DNA of 32,000 nt from Candidatus Saccharimonas aalborgensis (GTDB lineage Bacteria > Patescibacteriota > Saccharimonadia > Saccharimonadales > Saccharimonadaceae): the NCBI RefSeq assembly GCF_000392435.1, contig NC_021219.1, forward strand, positions 960,001 to 992,000, written 5' to 3'. The position numbers and the translations under genes are program-made. Within the stretch, counting starts at the first letter, position 1. Each line of letters opens with the position of its first letter. Under the pieces are notes generated by a model. That model was not told the DNA's origin. It worked only from the letters and a program-made list of their open reading frames with translations, and did not search any database. Of this stretch, positions 2,181 through 28,040 are shown piece by piece.

Positions 2181-2735
2181 CTACCGCTTCTGGCTAATAG
2201 ATGCGGGTACGGGTTCGTCGCGAACAGCGATGACCCTTGAAGCACGTTCTTTTGTCAATCGACTAAGCACGGCTTTGACTTGCGTCGCGTAGGTGTGTTT
2301 ACCACTGATGACAACAGGTGTTTCAGACGGATGCGGCGGGCTAAACTTTCGAGCAATTTCGTCGTAGTCACCTGGCGTCATATCGTATGCCTTGAGAGTA
2401 CGATCTTGGGCTGTTTCGCTGTCAACCTGCACCCATACGATGACAGGCTTGTAGCCATGCTTTCGCACCCATTTGCAAAACTCGGTGCGGACAGTCCTCG
2501 AATCGGTGAATCCCTCATACACAAAACTCTGACCAGTTTTGACGATTTCGTTGGCAACGATTGCAGTGATTGCCTGTAAGGATGGCGTGTCTTTGGTAAA
2601 AGAAGCAAAGGCGCGACTATCGATACACGGCATATGAAACGTCTCAGCAAACTGTTTGGCAAAAAAGCTTTTTCCACTCCCAGGAAGCCCTACCATCATG
2701 ATCGCATGAGGATCGGTAAGATGTAATGATCTCAT
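2181..2735 (-). CDS. P-loop NTPase, kinase-like (AAA_33-like)
   Basis: 184 aa. Walker A GLPGSGKS close to the N-terminus. No further family assignment possible by eye. Confidence 0.55.
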   Translation of the reverse strand: MRSLHLTDPHAIMMVGLPGSGKSFFAKQFAETFHMPCIDSRAFASFTKDTPSLQAITAIVANEIVKTGQSFVYEGFTDSRTVRTEFCKWVRKHGYKPVIVWVQVDSETAQDRTLKAYDMTPGDYDEIARKFSPPHPSETPVVISGKHTYATQVKAVLSRLTKERASRVIAVRDEPVPASISQKR

Positions 2736-9165: not shown

Positions 9166-9890
9166 AGCTCAGCAAACGACTTTCGCTCCGAACCAAGCAA
9201 CTACTACGTCACATGACGCCGAGACATGTCGTTCGTTCACGTATTACCCGATCTACGCTACGGCGGTTTGCCGAGAAAGTTGGACTTGTCTATTTTGGTT
9301 ATGTAGATCAACGTGATGATGATCATCGACTGGTGCGAGGGCACACTGTTTCTTCTACTCATGCCGACAATCACTACTGTGTAGGGTCAATTCGTGGCTA
9401 CGATGTTGTCTTGGTGGCTCGCAACGATACTATTCGCGCCAAACACTCACAGACGTATGAGCGCTGCCATTGGCTCATCGCTACAGTTGACCTCCATACC
9501 CGTTATGAGCTTCCTCACTTTTATATCGGACATGGGTCTCGTCGGTCAGCATTCGAAGCATCATTTGAGCAGCTGATTCCCCTGCAAATCGGTACGTTCG
9601 GAACTTACCCGCATGATTTTACGTCAAATTATACGGTCTACGGCATGGCTTCACATGCGCTGGAAATCGAACAAATTATCGTGCCGGGTGTTGCGGGCGT
9701 TATCGCATCGCACTTTCGAAGTGCGAGTATAGAAATCGAAGATAACTGCCTCTACCTCTATATCGAAAGCCAGCACCCCTCAGAAGAAGTGCTGGAAAAA
9801 CTTATATCAAACGCATTATGGCTTGCGGACACGCTCGACACGGCACTTGCGCCGCGTCTCGATGAATCTCCTAGCCCTTACGCGGCTTGA
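9162..9890 (+). CDS. hypothetical protein, fourth gene of the glucan operon
   Basis: 242 aa. Start overlaps the GH15 stop (ATGA at 9162-9165). I recognise no motif. Confidence 0.55.
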
Positions 9891-21978: not shown

Positions 21979-22203
21979 TTAATCACGTGCGCGGAAAACG
22001 ATTCTGCCCTTTGTGAGATCATAAGGGGTTAGCTCGACTTCCACGATATCGCCCGGTACCAGACGGATATAATGCTTGCGCATCTTGCCGCTAATATGAG
22101 CGATGATACTTAGGCCGTTTTCCAATTCCACCCTAAACTGAGTATTAGGCAGTGCTTCCACCACCTTGCCTCGCAGTTTAATAACTTCTTTGGTACTCGC
22201 CAT
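21979..22203 (-). CDS. infA: translation initiation factor IF-1
   Basis: 74 aa. [60 protein letters not shown]. Confidence 0.95.
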
Positions 22204-22219
22204 AGATATACAGCATTTT

Positions 22220-22248
22220 ATTATACGGTATCATATGACAAAAGTAAA
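22220..22248 (-). promoter_or_regulatory. candidate promoter for infA-rpmJ-rpsM...
   Basis: The - strand reads TTTACT (22248-22243), 17-nt spacer, TATAAT (22225-22220). Lies 16 nt upstream of the infA ATG. Confidence 0.5.
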
Positions 22249-22305
22249 CAGATTTAACAGAGAATCGCGGTATAGTTAGTCTACCGCAACTAAATTGATA
22301 GTTTT

Positions 22306-22333
22306 ATTGTAGCGAATATCGTTCGTGAGTCAA
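22306..22333 (-). promoter_or_regulatory. second candidate - strand promoter, divergent from the 22353 promoter
   Basis: The - strand reads TTGACT (22333-22328), 16-nt spacer, TACAAT (22311-22306). Its -35 box and the + strand -35 box form the inverted repeat agtcaagt...acttgact. Confidence 0.4.
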
Positions 22334-22352
22334 GTCAAAAGAGTGAGGATAC

Positions 22353-22381
22353 TTGACTTTTATATAAATATAGTGTAAAAT
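22353..22381 (+). promoter_or_regulatory. near-consensus promoter of G+C-rich unit A
   Basis: TTGACT (22353-22358), 17-nt spacer, TAAAAT (22376-22381), in AT-rich DNA. Confidence 0.6.
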
Positions 22382-22434
22382 AGTACACGAGTCCATTGTA
22401 GTTTGACAACCCCAACCCCCTGAAAGGATACCTG

Positions 22435-22785
22435 ATGGGAAAGAGATGGCCTGGCATGGGTCGCCTGCGCGCAAAGCGCAAAGCGACTGCCCAGCTCGCC
22501 GCTGCTAAGGCAGCGGCGGCGGTGAGGGCTCAGGAGGTCGTGAACGACCTCCTGTATCCCCACCAACGGGAGCACGGTACTTCGCTTCTCGAGCGGCTGC
22601 ACCCAGAGCCGCTCGACGTGTCGGATCACTCCGGCACGCCCAACCCTCGACGTCGTGTGCGCCATCGGGCAGACCGTCGGCGACGGCTGCCCGAGGCGCT
22701 TGTCACCGAGCGGCCCTGCGCCGCTCGCGGCCACCACCGTGGCTGCGAGTGTGCTGACTACGTCTGGGAGCCGCTTCACGCATGA
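22435..22785 (+). CDS. orphan G+C-rich ORF A (116 aa, Arg/Ala-rich); coding status uncertain
   Basis: AAAGGA lies 7 nt before the ATG. Hand-counted GC1/GC2/GC3 is about 79/55/72%. The codon-aligned antisense ORF (22360-22779) is also open. I recognise no motif. Confidence 0.4.
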   Translation: MGKRWPGMGRLRAKRKATAQLAAAKAAAAVRAQEVVNDLLYPHQREHGTSLLERLHPEPLDVSDHSGTPNPRRRVRHRADRRRRLPEALVTERPCAARGHHRGCECADYVWEPLHA

Positions 22786-22813
22786 AGCGTGCTCCCGACA
22801 CCTACAATGGATT

Positions 22814-22850
22814 GGCCCTTACTGCACTCGCGGTAGGGGCCTTTCCTTTG
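22814..22850 (+). terminator. intrinsic terminator of unit A, convergent on the secY 3' end
   Basis: ggcccttac-N10-gtaggggcc (9 bp including one G-U) followed by tttcctttg. Ends 18 nt before the secY stop. Confidence 0.55.
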
Positions 22851-22867
22851 CAGCTACTTTCGAAATA

Positions 22868-24277
22868 TTATTTGTAATCGTCGTACGTCACCATGAGGGC
22901 GCGTGAGTTGACCTGTCGCAGAGTTTCGAGCCCCACTGTCACGACGATGAGAAGACCCGTGCCTCCAATCGCCAAATTGGCAGCGTTGAGCCCTAGTTTG
23001 ACAAAGACATACTCAATGATGAATGGCATCACGGAGATAAAGCCGAGAGCAATAGAACCAAACAGAATTAAGCGATTGACCGTCCGTCCCAGATATTTTT
23101 CGGTCTGAATCCCCGGACGCACTCCCTCGATGAAGCCACCTTGCTTTTGCAGGTTTTCGGCAATCTCATTTGAATTAAAGACGATGCCCGTATAGAAGTA
23201 CGTAAACAATATTACGAGGAGGAAATAGGCAGCCGGATAGATAAATACGCCCAGATCACCACTTGCAAAGGACTGGGCGTTTGGTGCCTGGAACCACTTG
23301 ATAAGATCGGCGCTCAGCTGAGTATACGAGGGGTTATTGGTTGCTTTGAGCACTTGACCTGCAAAGGCAGGGAGGCTGAGAAACGCGACCGCAAAAATCA
23401 CCGGGATAACACCCGCAGCAATGAGCTTGACGGGGAGGATGCTTTTGATACCGCCGTAACTCGTATTGCCAGCGACACGTTTGGCGTAGTTGATAGTGAT
23501 GATACGCTGAGCTTCATTGATTTTAACGAGGAAATACAATATAAAGAGCGATAAAAGACCGATAACAAGTGCTACCCAAAACGCCGTCGGGCTCACCGGT
23601 AGGTCAAACCAGCCAAAGACGCTTAACTTTCCTGCCGTTGTGTCCAATAGCGAGGCGATGACCGTACTGAGGGTTGCTGGTAGCTGACTGATGATACCGG
23701 CAAAAATAATGAGTGAAATACCATTACCAATACCTTGCTCAGTGATGAGCTCTCCTAGCCACATGAGGAGAATGGAACCGGCGGTCATAGCAGTGACGGC
23801 TACTATCCACTCTGTTGGTGTGGTCGTGACAGTACCGGCAGTACTGCCTGCAAGAACTGACTGGCGCAGAATATAGATAATTGCAACAGACTGAATGACT
23901 GCGAGTGGTACGGAGATGATACGCGTCCACTGGTTTATCTTGCGACGGCCAGATTCACCATCCTTATGGAGTTCTTCTAGCTTTGGGATTGCTTTTGTGA
24001 GCAACTGGGTGATGACGCTGGCAGTGATAAACGGACTCATTCCGACCAGGACGATAGACAACTGGCTGAGTGCACCACCGCTCATAAGGTTGAGGAATCC
24101 GCCGAAGTCACTTGAGCCGATCACCGTATCAATGATACTCTTTAGCTTACTCGGTTCAGCAATGGGCACAGGGATATGCGACATGAAACGAAACGCGACG
24201 ATCAGTCCAAAGACGATCAAGAGGCGTTTTTGCATATCACGGTTTTTGAGTGATCGAAGGATAATTTTCCAATTCAT
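22868..24277 (-). CDS. secY: preprotein translocase subunit SecY
   Basis: 469 aa, 10-TM pattern. LNLMSGGALSQLSIVLVGMSPFITASVITQLL and GELITEQGIGNGISLIIFAGI. Confidence 0.95.
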   Translation of the reverse strand: MNWKIILRSLKNRDMQKRLLIVFGLIVAFRFMSHIPVPIAEPSKLKSIIDTVIGSSDFGGFLNLMSGGALSQLSIVLVGMSPFITASVITQLLTKAIPKLEELHKDGESGRRKINQWTRIISVPLAVIQSVAIIYILRQSVLAGSTAGTVTTTPTEWIVAVTAMTAGSILLMWLGELITEQGIGNGISLIIFAGIISQLPATLSTVIASLLDTTAGKLSVFGWFDLPVSPTAFWVALVIGLLSLFILYFLVKINEAQRIITINYAKRVAGNTSYGGIKSILPVKLIAAGVIPVIFAVAFLSLPAFAGQVLKATNNPSYTQLSADLIKWFQAPNAQSFASGDLGVFIYPAAYFLLVILFTYFYTGIVFNSNEIAENLQKQGGFIEGVRPGIQTEKYLGRTVNRLILFGSIALGFISVMPFIIEYVFVKLGLNAANLAIGGTGLLIVVTVGLETLRQVNSRALMVTYDDYK

Positions 24278-24376
24278 ACGGAGTAATTCTGCCTGTTTTC
24301 TGTGCGTTAGATGATACTACTTTACCTACAGTATACAGGACATGTTGCTGCGGTGCTAGCGGATTGTGCCGGATAC

Positions 24377-24405
24377 TTGTACGACATGACGATCTGTTGT
24401 ATAAT
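24377..24405 (+). promoter_or_regulatory. near-consensus promoter of G+C-rich unit B, divergent from secY
   Basis: TTGTAC (24377-24382), 17-nt spacer, TATAAT (24400-24405). Confidence 0.6.
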
Positions 24406-24443
24406 ATGGTTATTGATAGCATTCGTGGGCATGCTTGATCATT

Positions 24444-24458
24444 GACAAGCAAGCATGT
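24444..24458. repeat. left arm of a perfect 15-bp inverted repeat bracketing ORF B
   Basis: gacaagcaagcatgt is the exact reverse complement of 25084-25098. It also forms a local hairpin with catgcttg at 24430-24437. Confidence 0.8.
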
Positions 24459-24548
24459 AGCCTACGGTGCTCCTACGAACTCCTAGCTCACTCGAGCTGG
24501 TGAGAAAAAGACCCTATCAAGACGGGTCACTATGGAAGGAGTTGCCTC

Positions 24549-25004
24549 TTGCCCAAGAAGGTCAAGAATCTGTTCGGTAAGACATTCGGCTACGAAGGAG
24601 GTGTGGTCAACTTTGACGGACATATGGGCATGTTCGTCGGCGACGACAACGAACCCTTCGCCGGACGTGAGGGTGAGCAGGTGGTTCCGTACCCCATTGT
24701 TCCTCCTGCCGGGGAATCGTCGGCTCGTCGGGCACTCGTCGAGCTGGTGAACCAGACGCTTGCGTCGAGGTACGGTTCCAAGTTGGATGGAATCATCGTC
24801 AGCCCACGGATGGCACGAAACCTCTTCCTCGAGGGGCTGATCACGCCGGTCCATCTGGCTGCGGCCATCGAAGAGGCATTCGAGGGAGACCTCGTTCTCG
24901 TCATCCCGGATGTCAACATCGCTGGGCACCTCCTGTACATCGAGGTCGACAGCAACGCCGCGGTGAACTCATTCGCCATCGACCGAAAGGGGTATCTGAT
25001 CTGA
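24549..25004 (+). CDS. orphan G+C-rich ORF B (151 aa), unknown function
   Basis: TTG start with GGAAGGAG (24534-24541) 7 nt upstream. Third codon positions are mostly G/C. Balanced, globular-looking composition. I recognise no motif. Confidence 0.6.
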   Translation: MPKKVKNLFGKTFGYEGGVVNFDGHMGMFVGDDNEPFAGREGEQVVPYPIVPPAGESSARRALVELVNQTLASRYGSKLDGIIVSPRMARNLFLEGLITPVHLAAAIEEAFEGDLVLVIPDVNIAGHLLYIEVDSNAAVNSFAIDRKGYLI

Positions 25005-25023
25005 TGTCGATCCGATCGATGAC

Positions 25024-25057
25024 GAGGGGCGGCGTAGCAGTTTTTGCGCCGCCCCTC
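25024..25057 (+). terminator. 11-bp G+C hairpin after ORF B (no U-tail)
   Basis: gaggggcggcg-N12-cgccgcccctc, a perfect stem. A second small hairpin with a T-rich tail lies at 25104-25125. Confidence 0.4.
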
Positions 25058-25083
25058 AGGGGGGTCTCCGTTACCATCGCTAC

Positions 25084-25098
25084 ACATGCTTGCTTGTC
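25084..25098. repeat. right arm of the perfect 15-bp inverted repeat
   Basis: acatgcttgcttgtc is the reverse complement of 24444-24458. Confidence 0.8.
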
Positions 25099-25134
25099 GC
25101 AATACCCCATAAAGGGGTTTTATTTATATCGTTT

Positions 25135-25569
25135 CTACGCAGCTTGTTCGGAAGCGCGACGAAACACGAGCACTGTATCTGCTTGTGCATCTCGATCTTT
25201 GCGCACAATGGGTAGGGGTAGCTCACCAGCGATCTCTTTGAGTGCTCCCGCAAGAAATAAATCTAAGTCCATTGTTCCTGAAGCAATCTGACGCCACCCT
25301 GTCTCGGAGACAACAACTTTCCCATCGAGGAAGTCTATAAGTTTCTCTGGCAAAAAGCCCTCTATTGCGCCGATAGTCTCGTCGCTCACCGTCCAACCTG
25401 CATCTCTGGCCAGATGCTCTAGGCGCCCCACCTGTGCGCCAATGAACTGCCTGCGGAGATTTCCGTACCCCTCGCGAATGGCACGTGCTAGTCGCTCACG
25501 ACCAGCTTGCTCGTAGTTGCGCCGATGTTCATTCCAATCGATCGCTATTTCGGGTACGCGTGGCATCAT
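25135..25569 (-). CDS. orphan 144-aa protein between rplO and secY
   Basis: GGAGGACAG lies directly upstream of ATGATG. It sits downstream of the rplO terminator. I recognise no motif. Confidence 0.6.
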   Translation of the reverse strand: MMPRVPEIAIDWNEHRRNYEQAGRERLARAIREGYGNLRRQFIGAQVGRLEHLARDAGWTVSDETIGAIEGFLPEKLIDFLDGKVVVSETGWRQIASGTMDLDLFLAGALKEIAGELPLPIVRKDRDAQADTVLVFRRASEQAA

Positions 25570-25626
25570 CTGTCCTCCAGTTTAGCTACTAACAAACTAT
25601 AGCATGCTTTGTCACACCATCTATAA

Positions 25627-25658
25627 CAAAAGTATGCGCCAATACTGCGCATACTTTT
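25627..25658 (-). terminator. intrinsic terminator immediately after rplO
   Basis: agtatgcgc-caatact-gcgcatact, a 9-bp stem extended by A/T pairs. The - strand tail is UUUUGUUAU. Lies 23 nt after the rplO stop. Confidence 0.65.
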
Positions 25659-25680
25659 GGCAAAACCAAGCGAGTTGTCG

Positions 25681-26160
25681 CTATTTTTTATCTGTAGCTT
25701 CAGCTTCTTTGGCTGATTTTTGGATGGGTGTTGCGACTTTATCGAAACTACCACCTGCCTTTTCTATAGCAGCCACAACGTTCCTTGATGCGCCCTGAGT
25801 CTTGAGAGTGATCTTGCTCCCCAGTTCACCACGAGCGATTACCTTGACGGTATGGAACGGTGTCGCGATAAGATTTGCTTCGTACAGAGCATAGTTATCG
25901 ACGATACCCTTGAGTCCTTCAAGCCGATCAAGGTAGACAACCTGAGCTGGTGTTCGCAAACTTTTGAATCCTCGTGATTTTGGCACCGCAGTAGCGATGC
26001 CGTTTTGGCCACCCTGAAACATCGGACGCAGCTTCTTGCCAGTACGAGCATTCTGACCTTTTGTTCCGCGACCTGCTGTCTTGCCACCACCGGCAGCAAT
26101 TCCGCGGCCGACGCGCTTGCGATCCTTGTGCGTACTCATCTGGAGATCATTGTATTTCAT
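25681..26160 (-). CDS. rplO: 50S ribosomal protein L15
   Basis: 159 aa. RVGRGIAAGGGKTAGRGTKGQNAR. Start overlaps the rpsE stop (TAATG). Confidence 0.95.
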   Translation of the reverse strand: MKYNDLQMSTHKDRKRVGRGIAAGGGKTAGRGTKGQNARTGKKLRPMFQGGQNGIATAVPKSRGFKSLRTPAQVVYLDRLEGLKGIVDNYALYEANLIATPFHTVKVIARGELGSKITLKTQGASRNVVAAIEKAGGSFDKVATPIQKSAKEAEATDKK

Positions 26161-26822: not shown

Positions 26823-27175
26823 TAAAACTCCAATCCTTCTTTACGTGCTGCATCTGCAAGTGCTCCCAGTCGGCCAGCATACTGGCGACCATTGCGGTCA
26901 AACACAACAGTGGTTATTTTTACTTTCTTAGCCTTCTTTGCAATTTCGGTACCGATACTGGCGCACTTTTCAGTCATCCTACCAGTCAGTTTGCTGCCTA
27001 CTGAGGTTGCGCTCGCAAGTGTATGTTGCTTGTCGTCATCAATTAACTGTGCGCTAACGTGCATATTGCTGATAACAACACTTAGTCGTGGTCTCTCGGC
27101 AGTACCGTGTACTTTTGCGCGAACACGACTCTTACGGAGGCTTCGGTTAAGCAGTTTTTTTGCTAAATTAGTCAT
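26822..27175 (-). CDS. rplR: 50S ribosomal protein L18
   Basis: 117 aa. RKSRVRAKVHGTAERPRLSVVISNMHVSAQLIDD ... FDRNGRQYAGRLGALADAARKEGLEF. Confidence 0.95.
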   Translation of the reverse strand: MTNLAKKLLNRSLRKSRVRAKVHGTAERPRLSVVISNMHVSAQLIDDDKQHTLASATSVGSKLTGRMTEKCASIGTEIAKKAKKVKITTVVFDRNGRQYAGRLGALADAARKEGLEF

Positions 27176-27195
27176 TACTTCTTCCCTGCCTTTCC
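27161..27195 (-). repeat. copy B of the duplicated rplF/rplR junction (functional rplR start)
   Basis: The - strand reads gga aag gca ggg aag aag taATG act aat tta gca. 28 of 35 nt identical to 27289-27323. Confidence 0.75.
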
Positions 27196-27303
27196 AGTCT
27201 GTGTATGAGACAAATCTACGGTTTTTCTCATCGCGCGGCGCACAGGAGTAAATCCTGATGCTCCGGCTGCTCTTTTCCCTTGGGTTATAGCTAGATCAGA
27301 CAT
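27175..27303 (-). CDS. 42-codon ORF exactly filling the rplF-rplR spacer
   Basis: My translation is MSDLAITQGKRAAGASGFTPVRRAMRKTVDLSHTQTGKAGKK. The ATG overlaps the rplF stop (TAATG) and the stop overlaps the rplR ATG (TAATG). Not in the track (under 60 aa). Confidence 0.4.
   Translation of the reverse strand: MSDLAITQGKRAAGASGFTPVRRAMRKTVDLSHTQTGKAGKK
27205..27278 (-). repeat. copy 2 of the ~73-nt structured element (rplF-rplR spacer)
   Basis: Aligns with 12666-12737. Flanks are conserved and the hairpin stems differ in a compensatory way. Confidence 0.7.
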
Positions 27304-27857: not shown

Positions 27858-28040
27858 TTATTCAAGTTCTTCATCGTCGTTAACCGGAACATAAGTATTA
27901 AACATGTGCAATACCTGCTCTCGATGCTCTAGCGTTATGCCCAGCAAGGAAGATCCAGCAATTTTCTTGTAAAACTCAGTTGCCGCAGTATCGAGATAGT
28001 CTCGTTGCTCGGGTGTTAATTCTGCTCGTGCCTTGACCAT
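27858..28040 (-). CDS. orphan 60-aa ORF between rpsH and rplF
   Basis: The ATG lies 1 nt after the rpsH stop and the stop lies 18 nt before the rplF ATG. Helical-looking sequence with an acidic tail, NDDEELE. Confidence 0.5.
   Translation of the reverse strand: MVKARAELTPEQRDYLDTAATEFYKKIAGSSLLGITLEHREQVLHMFNTYVPVNDDEELE

Follow-up and report, generated by a model that had tools for sequence, protein, structure and literature searches.

The junction of the spc and alpha ribosomal protein operons has the gene order rplO-secY-adk-map-infA-rpmJ in Bacillus subtilis and many other bacteria. We discuss here the equivalent region in the reference genome of Candidatus Saccharimonas aalborgensis, identified by exact-sequence look-up, in a 32-kb stretch of DNA that we call the window and to which all coordinates refer, except where they carry the label of a locus or contig of a relative that was compared with it (L001, L007, L009 and so on). 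The ribosomal protein supercluster is on the - strand, with rplO, secY, infA, rpmJ and rpsM in the usual order, and it is not contiguous on that strand, as there is a + strand gene on each side of secY: p151, for a protein of 151 amino acids (aa), between rplO and secY, and p116, for one of 116 aa, between secY and infA. We think it likely that these are accessory orphan genes in plastic slots, that they go back to an old horizontal acquisition, and that they have since been kept by selection. A literature search gave nothing on this secY-flanking locus.

Other described systems are also relevant. Genomic islets and phage 'morons' are autonomous units of promoter, gene and terminator with an atypical composition. 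The type I toxin mRNAs of hok, with its fbi element, and of Helicobacter AapA1 are locked by long-distance pairing of their 5' and 3' ends. Finally there are dual-function RNAs that both code and fold, as in SgrS/SgrT, RNAIII/hld and SR1/SR1P.

An initial annotation of this DNA had described two autonomous opposite-strand units of common build on both sides of secY, in gaps of 857 and 664 nt, and this description is borne out, with the gap sizes being exact (24278-25134 and 22204-22867). A chimeric assembly is excluded, as the same layout is present in more than 15 independent assemblies (from ENA, Logan, NCBI and JGI), and every contig that carries p151 and p116 has the order rplO, p151 (+), secY, p116 (+) and infA, with a further gene, p144, following rplO in some strains. 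Each unit would comprise, in order, a sigma-70-type promoter in AT-rich DNA, a 5' untranslated region (UTR), a Shine-Dalgarno sequence (SD), a coding sequence (CDS) rich in guanine plus cytosine (G+C) at third codon positions (the G+C fraction at these positions being GC3), a segment complementary to the 5' UTR, and lastly an intrinsic terminator.

The elements of the proposed common build are not equally clear in the two units. An SD and start codon are found in both (AAAGGA for p116; AGGAG at 24537-24541 with TTG at 24549 for p151). The near-consensus promoter claimed for both is a predicted site in unit 1, that of p116, and its hexamers are invariant in 8 sequences, but in unit 2, that of p151, the best + strand site matches the consensus at only 9 of 12 positions, and the p151 transcription start is placed by prediction. 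The bracketing inverted repeat holds for unit 2, where it is a perfect one of 15 nt, and we estimate that about 0.006 such pairs would be expected by chance in 3.5 kb; the repeat of unit 1 has about 10 exact bases and is not significant alone, its support coming from position and conservation. As for the terminal G+C-rich hairpin, in unit 1 it is a good candidate terminator, but in unit 2 the hairpin concerned (25024-25057) has no U-run, and it is the smaller hairpin at 25104-25118 that is terminator-like.

The slots themselves are best understood from the class as a whole. The lack of adk and map had been seen as special to this locus, and insertions as rare in a cluster of such conserved order. 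The secY-infA gap of the window does indeed hold neither gene, but in Saccharibacteria neither view can be sustained. We surveyed 80 Saccharibacteria secY loci (SecY identity 73-97%), and in 80 of 80 neither gene adjoins secY: tblastn and phmmer searches with E. coli Adk and Map found none between secY and infA or within 5 kb, and the ADK (PF00406) and Peptidase_M24 domains have no match among 99 spacer open reading frames (ORFs), nor in our domain scan of the window, which took in its 27 largest ORFs. Spacer length is 76-3166 bp between rplO and secY and 63-2678 bp between secY and infA, and the spacers hold a sortase gene (19 loci), about 70 orphan ORFs and occasionally genes for UbiA, OmpA, PP2C, polyprenyl synthase or peptidoglycan-binding proteins. 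With adk and map absent from the junction class-wide and the spacers so variable, these are therefore traits of the lineage, and each of the two junctions is a hot spot of variable cargo. That adk and map are missing at secY is an ancestral state. We see the secY-flanking spacers as probable plastic slots throughout Saccharibacteria, in a class that would never have had adk and map there, and in the S. aalborgensis clade the slots would hold three accessory protein genes without known family.

Within the surveyed loci p116, p151 and p144 are confined to the S. aalborgensis clade, and comparison of the slot ORFs of other Saccharibacteria with p151 and p116 by phmmer, family hidden Markov model (HMM) and hhalign gave nothing significant. 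One relative (L023, 81% SecY identity) has in its secY-infA slot a non-homologous cassette of like build, with TTGACA and TATAAT signals, an antisense CDS of 62% G+C and a terminator; its protein has only an ECxxYxW tail in common with p116 (hhalign probability 0.6%). The sortase-domain gene, for a protein of about 228 aa, is directly 3' of secY and on the same strand in its 19 loci (within L029-L095; for example L095:6429-7115), and so occupies the place of adk in other bacteria. There are also 19 near-identical loci (L037 and L046-L069, not all consecutive, one labelled Candidatus Nanosynbacter; for example L048:6400-6651) with a conserved secY-infA spacer of about 300 nt that includes an antisense ORF of 74-86 aa without Pfam match.

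The alignments indicate that p116 and p151 are both protein-coding genes. In the case of p116 the annotated frame alone is open throughout in 8 of 8 homologues, the indels in the ORF are of 9 and 3 nt and keep the frame, with indels of 4 nt in the UTR, and there are 39, 37 and 67 variable columns at codon positions 1, 2 and 3 respectively. The ratio of nonsynonymous to synonymous substitution (dN/dS, by Nei-Gojobori) is 0.36-0.65. In the case of p151 the ORF is preserved, the indels are in frame and dN/dS is 0.27-0.55. Homologues of both genes are confined to a handful of clusters, with 66-91% identity for p116 and, all in the same position, 62-97% for p151. For secY the ratio is 0.00-0.05, and for p144 it is 0.11-0.13 against its most distant allele, that of L009; the values for the three small genes are all above that of secY, and we therefore regard them as real genes evolving faster than their housekeeping neighbours. 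An ORF of 139 aa on the - strand of unit 1 was considered as a gene and rejected, since it has stop codons in the homologues and the wrong codon phase. The exact p116 sequence has no NCBI protein accession on exact-sequence look-up.

The p116 protein is basic, has a high content of Arg, Ala and Pro, and for the most part is predicted to be disordered. Its C-terminal motif, RPCAARGHxxGCECADYxWEPLHA, is present in 7 of 7 full-length homologues; apart from one change of Glu to Gly, it varies among them at the x positions alone. The AlphaFold2 model has a predicted local distance difference test score (pLDDT) of 62, and a long N-terminal helix (residues 8-40) is the sole confident element; the mean pLDDT for p151 is 38. 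Our best guess is that p116 may be a small zinc-dependent nucleic-acid-binding protein, given its very basic character, the N-terminal helix and the conserved Cys/His cluster. The p151 protein may be globular.

It is the composition of the two units that sets them apart. The G+C contents counted by hand in the initial annotation agree with the computed values of 66.7% (22441-22560), 59.2% (24601-24720) and 43.3% (23041-23100, within secY), and the window mean is 49.1% (standard deviation 3.5%, 400-nt windows), with the top eight 400-nt windows of the 32 kb all within the two + strand units. In p151 GC3 reaches 0.73 and in p116 0.71, compared with 0.39-0.58 in 21 further genes of the window, taken from both strands, and thus the units are outliers at synonymous sites and not just in amino-acid content, as the proposed deviation in composition would have it. 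A crude survey of GC3, in which an outlier is an ORF at least 0.18 above its locus median, gave 14 outliers among 1247 non-overlapping ORFs in 82 loci (1.1%), and 8 of the 14 are in the two secY-flanking spacers. A GC3 of about 0.72, against about 0.50 in the neighbours, would mark p116 and p151 as outsiders to the resident gene pool, and a foreign origin is suggested by this composition and by a dispersed, cassette-like distribution.

The second unusual feature is the predicted folding of the transcripts. The p116 transcript (491 nt) has a minimum free energy (MFE) of -266 kcal/mol, with z = -9.7 relative to dinucleotide shuffles, and the CDS, at 68% G+C, is predicted to fold as a chain of hairpins. 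The fold of this CDS is 5.5 standard deviations more stable than those of synonymous-codon shuffles, in which protein and codon usage are kept, and for the 66% identical L096 homologue the figure is 4.5; p151, p144 and rpsM show no such excess. In the consensus structure, which was derived from the same 7 related sequences that were used to test it, 95.6% of alignment cells are paired, and there are compensatory double changes at 12 pairs; shuffles gave 4.4 +/- 1.6, with none of the 500 as high as 12, and slid controls gave 0-7. The two ends of the transcript would be joined by a 12-bp helix that includes one G-T pairing and lies directly 5' of the terminator; 98.8% of its alignment cells are paired, with 3 variable pairs that show only exchanges among G-U, A-U and G-C. 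The terminator stem retains 12 of 12 pairs in 7 sequences, with one-sided wobble-compatible changes at 3 pairs. For p151, MFE folding of the entire transcript gives the closing helix, immediately 5' of the terminator-like hairpin, and its arms are conserved in 7 of 7 aligned lineages with one base change, in L007. The G+C-rich hairpin at 25024-25057 is also paired in that fold and is kept in relatives with minor changes. By analogy with the fold-back mRNAs of the hok type, the closing stems may sequester the mRNA ends and so stabilise the transcripts.

This folding raises the possibility that unit 1 is a structured non-coding or dual-function RNA, with a multi-hairpin transcript of about 465 nt as the product and the ORF incidental or secondary. 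The z-score, the excess over synonymous-codon shuffles in both the window and L096, the extent of pairing and the compensatory changes are all as expected for such an RNA. However the coding signatures of p116 are strong, several of the hairpins do not hold in L096 and L001, covariation contributes no more than -0.2 kcal/mol, the consensus structure comes from the same 7 related sequences, and there is no Rfam match even at E = 10. With Rfam 15 only tRNAs were found in the window at the gathering threshold, with no known RNA in either unit, and at E <= 10 there were only sub-threshold chance hairpin matches, while ARAGORN found no transfer-messenger RNA. We regard an RNA product with a secondary ORF as rather unlikely, and a purely non-coding p116 as very unlikely. 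A dual constraint on p116, for the protein and also for RNA or DNA structure, is plausible on these comparisons.

The source of the high GC3 is the next question. The initial annotation proposed acquisition from a donor of high G+C content, with the Actinomycetota hosts of Saccharibacteria or their phages as candidates, and we take this reading to be one of recent insertions. In genomes of about 50% G+C the GC3 of 0.71-0.73, and of 0.86-0.92 in more distant paralogues described below, would be well explained in this way, and the cassettes are autonomous in that each has its own predicted promoter and terminator. However no such donor was found among phages, plasmids, IMG/VR or the protein collections. 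The proteins p116, p151 and p144 have nothing significant in Pfam, NCBIfam, PHROGs, PADLOC or PDB; blastn of unit 1 against phages and plasmids, tblastn of the three proteins against phages and three scans of IMG/VR viral contigs gave no match; and in JGI metagenomes, scanned for the p151 family, the only matches were from its own clade. A word-indexed search of 5.8 billion clusters, the sole protein-collection search made for p116, found p116 in its own clade only, and for p151 a search of this kind gave no homologue beyond the clade and the one contig described below. The p151 HMM was also run exhaustively against 1.84 billion representative proteins, where it matched only the family itself, a protein P0018 and, weakly, a protein of 2920 aa. 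In addition, McLean et al. (2020, PMC7427843) report that TM7x shows no strong sign of genes acquired from Actinomyces.

P0018 (138 aa) is a genuine distant homologue of p151, with an hhalign probability of 96.8% and the common motif ARxLFLEGLIxPxHL. It is encoded on a metagenome contig (L103, 50% G+C) beside a tandem paralogue, p137 (137 aa), with 43% identity. There is a separate TTGACA-type promoter for each of the L103 paralogues, and GC3 is 0.92 (P0018) and 0.86 (p137), compared with about 0.5 in flanking genes. The pair is antisense to its neighbours, prfB on one side and a Mur ligase gene on the other, with no p116 relative within 6 kb. The initial annotation had the two units as possible parts of one system, and p116 and p151 do always co-occur, though within one clade only. 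Homologues were found only in that clade and on one contig, on which the neighbours are housekeeping genes. L103 also has a Cys/His-containing ORF of 150 aa that is unrelated to p151 and has a GC3 of 0.79, and all three of its GC3-rich ORFs are antisense to housekeeping neighbours (prfB, the Mur ligase gene, an M16 peptidase gene and secA).

The allelic variation also bears on the proposal of recent insertion. The units are conserved in place across the clade, with 62-97% amino-acid identity and under purifying selection, and their alleles differ by a synonymous divergence (dS) of 0.2-0.57 with position unchanged. We regard recent insertion from Actinomycetota or their phages as unlikely. Adjacent genes give very different values of dS: between the window and L001 it is 0 for rplO, 0.105 for secY and 0.40 for p151, and between the window and L007 the values are 0.009 (rplO) and 0.457 (secY). 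Such a mosaic indicates homologous recombination among strains. Local hypermutation, considered because p151 and p116 are 11-17% divergent beside identical rplO and infA, is ruled out by the gene-by-gene mosaic. In L011, L016, L109 and L110 a frameshifting deletion of 19 nt has split p151 into ORFs of 60 and 88 aa, which is either pseudogenisation or a frameshift of unclear meaning. This lineage and the patchy presence of p144 fit accessory status for these genes.

Our preferred explanation is then that p116 and p151 most likely came by an old horizontal acquisition from a G+C-richer donor, that moderate purifying selection would have retained both while homologous recombination shuffled them among strains, and that loss of p151 may have begun in one lineage. 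As a consequence the region would be divided into separate transcription units, with rplO at the end of one that closes in a terminator, followed by p144, by secY, and by infA-rpmJ-rpsM. Several points weigh against this explanation. Neither a donor nor an outside homologue was found, so the case for a horizontal origin is one of composition alone, and GC3 has remained high after a long residence (dS up to 0.57), contrary to amelioration, and might be due to selection instead. The promoters, transcription starts, terminators and closing stems are predictions. The structure models are poor, and the functions proposed for the proteins are therefore weakly grounded. The selection on p116 RNA structure means that coding is not the sole constraint there, and the arms of the p151 closing stem are nearly invariant and so offer no covariation.

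An origin of p116 without any donor would be de novo, from a G+C-rich palindromic spacer that was stop-poor by composition and came under selection later. The Arg/Ala/Pro-rich and largely disordered product, the hairpin-encoding codon pattern beyond the need of the protein and the absence of homologues elsewhere in the word-indexed search all fit, and so does the different G+C-rich antisense ORF in the slot of another clade, which shares just the ECxxYxW tail. Against this, the ancestral non-coding state is not observed, the nearest relatives without p116 having unrelated sequence in the slot, and p116 has the marks of a mature gene in its conserved Cys/His motif and in a promoter, SD and terminator of its own. 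We doubt that p116 arose in this way.

We also give little weight to the idea that p116, p151, the L103 paralogues and the L023 cassette belong to one undescribed class of Saccharibacteria cassettes. Such a class may be marked by a promoter of consensus type, an orphan CDS of high GC3, an mRNA with locked 5' and 3' ends (hyper-structured in p116) and a terminator, and its members may insert in antisense orientation where a spacer separates two essential genes. The cassettes might persist through a distinct regime of expression or stability, or because the products have a role in the interaction of epibiont and host, and the latter could account for a host-like G+C-rich codon usage.

It is less probable still that the units are, or once were, non-autonomous cassettes resembling miniature inverted-repeat transposable elements (MITEs), bounded by terminal inverted repeats and inserted into the ribosomal protein cluster. 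A perfect 15-nt inverted repeat does bracket p151, the slots of relatives accept mobile DNA (an insertion sequence, IS, of the rve family and a palindromic element of about 130 nt), and L103 has members of the p151 family at another locus. However no target-site duplication or direct repeat is visible beside the repeat arms, the repeats do not enclose the promoter and terminator, the window and 110 loci gave no further copy save at orthologous positions, the window has no transposase, and no comparable repeat is seen by eye around the L103 paralogues. That the units are type I toxin-antitoxin-like loci with mRNAs locked by 5'-3' fold-back, as in hok/sok and AapA1/IsoA1, is very improbable, for although both have a predicted long-range closing stem directly before the terminator and their mRNAs would be compact and stable, the products are of 116 and 151 aa, basic or soluble in character and not hydrophobic, no antisense small RNA gene was identified, and PADLOC and Pfam give no matches.

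The features discussed are listed in Table 1.

Table 1. Location of genes and predicted signals around secY, and of related features in other loci
Feature	Position	Strand	Remarks
infA	21979-22203	-	Pfam eIF-1a, E = 2.6e-26
infA promoter-like sites	22333 to 22306; 22248 to 22220	-	TTGACT-16-TACAAT and TTTACT-17-TATAAT; each 10/12 consensus
p116 promoter	22353-22381	+	TTGACT-17-TAAAAT; 10/12 consensus positions
p116 promoter and 5' UTR	22353-22434	+	includes closing-stem 5' arm AGTCCATTGTAG (22390-22401) and SD AAAGGA
p116 (116-aa ORF)	22435-22785	+	conserved frame, codon-position variation
p116 closing stem, 3' arm	22802-22813	+	CTACAATGGATT; pairs with 22390-22401
p116 predicted intrinsic terminator	22814-22849 (hairpin 22814-22841)	+	12-bp G+C-rich stem, then TTTCCTTT
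secY	22868-24277	-	Pfam SecY, E = 3.3e-91; AGL62699.1
p151 TATAAT	24400-24405	+	conserved; weak -35
p151 leader region (about 136-nt 5' leader)	24400-24548	+	95.9% DNA identity to L001, against 83% for CDS
p151 (151-aa ORF)	24549-25004	+	AGL62700.1, hypothetical protein L336_1001, by exact-sequence look-up
G+C-rich hairpin past p151 stop	25024-25057	+	GAGGGGCGGCG...CGCCGCCCCTC; no U-run
p151 closing stem, 3' arm	25084-25098	+	ACATGCTTGCTTGTC; perfect 15-nt inverted repeat I6 with 24444-24458
p151 terminator-like hairpin and T-run	25104-25128 (hairpin 25104-25118)	+	ACCCCATAAAGGGGT; nearly invariant in 7 lineages
p144 (144-aa ORF)	25135-25569	-	homologues, dN/dS
rplO 3' hairpin	25627-25659	-	perfect 13-bp inverted repeat I7, CAAAAGTATGCGC / GCGCATACTTTTG
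rplO (ribosomal protein L15)	25681-26160	-	Pfam Ribosomal_L27A, E = 1.4e-10; DNA 100% identical to L001
Split p151	L011:2429-2874; L016:4296-4580; L110:5001-5434; also L109		four independent assemblies
L103 features	L103:5337-6500 and 9260-9712		p151-family pair plus unrelated 150-aa ORF

With regard to the neighbouring genes, rplO is the last gene of the upstream ribosomal protein transcription unit. A strong terminator had been noted after it, and the perfect 13-bp hairpin was located about 21 nt past the rplO stop; its stem includes A and U tracts and it is kept in relatives despite sequence changes, and we infer that it acts as the intrinsic terminator of the rplO unit. Similarly, the two promoter-like sites upstream of infA imply that infA-rpmJ-rpsM is probably transcribed separately. 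The orphan gene of 144 aa reported after rplO is real, with homologues of 79-96% identity, but its composition is native-like (GC3 0.49) and its presence strain-variable, as it is absent from L001, L007, L015 and L097. Nor was any mobility gene present among the scanned ORFs of the window, as the initial annotation had stated.

The divergent secY/p151 intergenic region (24278-24548) is 95-97% identical in most strains and 85% identical in the most divergent, L009, and the p151 CDS differ by up to about 20% among strains that share it. The leader part of this region has the 5' arm of the closing stem (24444-24458), a local alternative partner for it (24429-24437) and two small conserved hairpins, and overlapping alternative hairpins, AGCTC/GAGCT versus CTCAC/GTGAG, can be drawn at about 24477-24505. 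The segment 24400-24548 must also hold the secY promoter, on the opposite strand, and 24278-24548 could be a regulatory leader shared with that promoter.

On the p116 side of secY, a palindromic MITE-like element of about 130 nt lies past the p116 terminator and before the secY stop in 8 loci (L001:4190-4320, and also L002, L003, L004, L006, L096, L101 and L102); its DNA fold has a z-score of -6.8, and the window has no copy, either at the equivalent site (about 22850-22867) or anywhere else along its length. In one group of strains there is an IS with an rve-family integrase (321 aa, helix-turn-helix plus rve) between the p116 promoter region and infA (L001:2621-3586, L003:2621-3586 and L006:11-976), which shows that the secY-infA spacer accepts mobile DNA.

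Elsewhere in the window there are two same-strand ORFs of 42 and 60 aa within the spc operon, at 27175-27303 (-) and 27858-28040 (-), in the rplR-rplF interval and immediately upstream of rplF. Relatives have gene calls for both; neither has a Pfam match, and their tblastn matches are confined to the S. aalborgensis clade. The sole nucleotide-kinase-like protein of the window is that of a P-loop kinase-like ORF of 184 aa at 2181-2735 (-), with AAA_33 and Zeta_toxin matches and no ADK-family match.

The analysis shows that the rplO-secY-infA junctions of Saccharibacteria are not frozen but are recurrent landing sites for accessory genes and for genes of atypical composition, and that adk and map are simply outside this cluster in these bacteria. 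It also defines two new orphan protein families, p116 and p151, and points to an unusual mRNA architecture, with 5'-3' closure predicted in both units and a p116 CDS that appears to be selected for RNA structure as well. As long as neither expression nor function is demonstrated, the practical impact is modest. Should the genes turn out to be expressed, they would be candidates for functions specific to this lineage, within a group that relies on small proteins which are poorly understood.

In comparison with the known systems, the locus resembles the canonical spc/alpha junction in having rplO, secY, infA, rpmJ and rpsM in that order on one strand, and differs in lacking adk and map, in having opposite-strand genes at secY, and in its predicted terminators and internal promoters. 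With hok and AapA1 it shares a predicted closing helix that joins the 5' UTR to a segment just before the terminator, and a compact structured transcript; however the products are not small hydrophobic toxins of under about 60 aa, and no antisense partner has been identified. The dual-function RNAs are similar in that p116 combines coding constraint with conserved structure inside the CDS, but its structure spans the whole CDS and is not a separate domain, and there is no known regulatory target. The units differ from islets and morons in not being in a prophage, in having no viral homologues or known donor, and in occupying a stable chromosomal slot clade-wide. Nonetheless the predicted promoter and terminator of their own, the deviant composition, the orphan products and the strain-variable neighbours are those of islets and morons, and p116 and p151 are probably best described as accessory islets that occupy an intergenic hot spot and are atypical in composition, with a structured, end-paired mRNA as their unusual feature.

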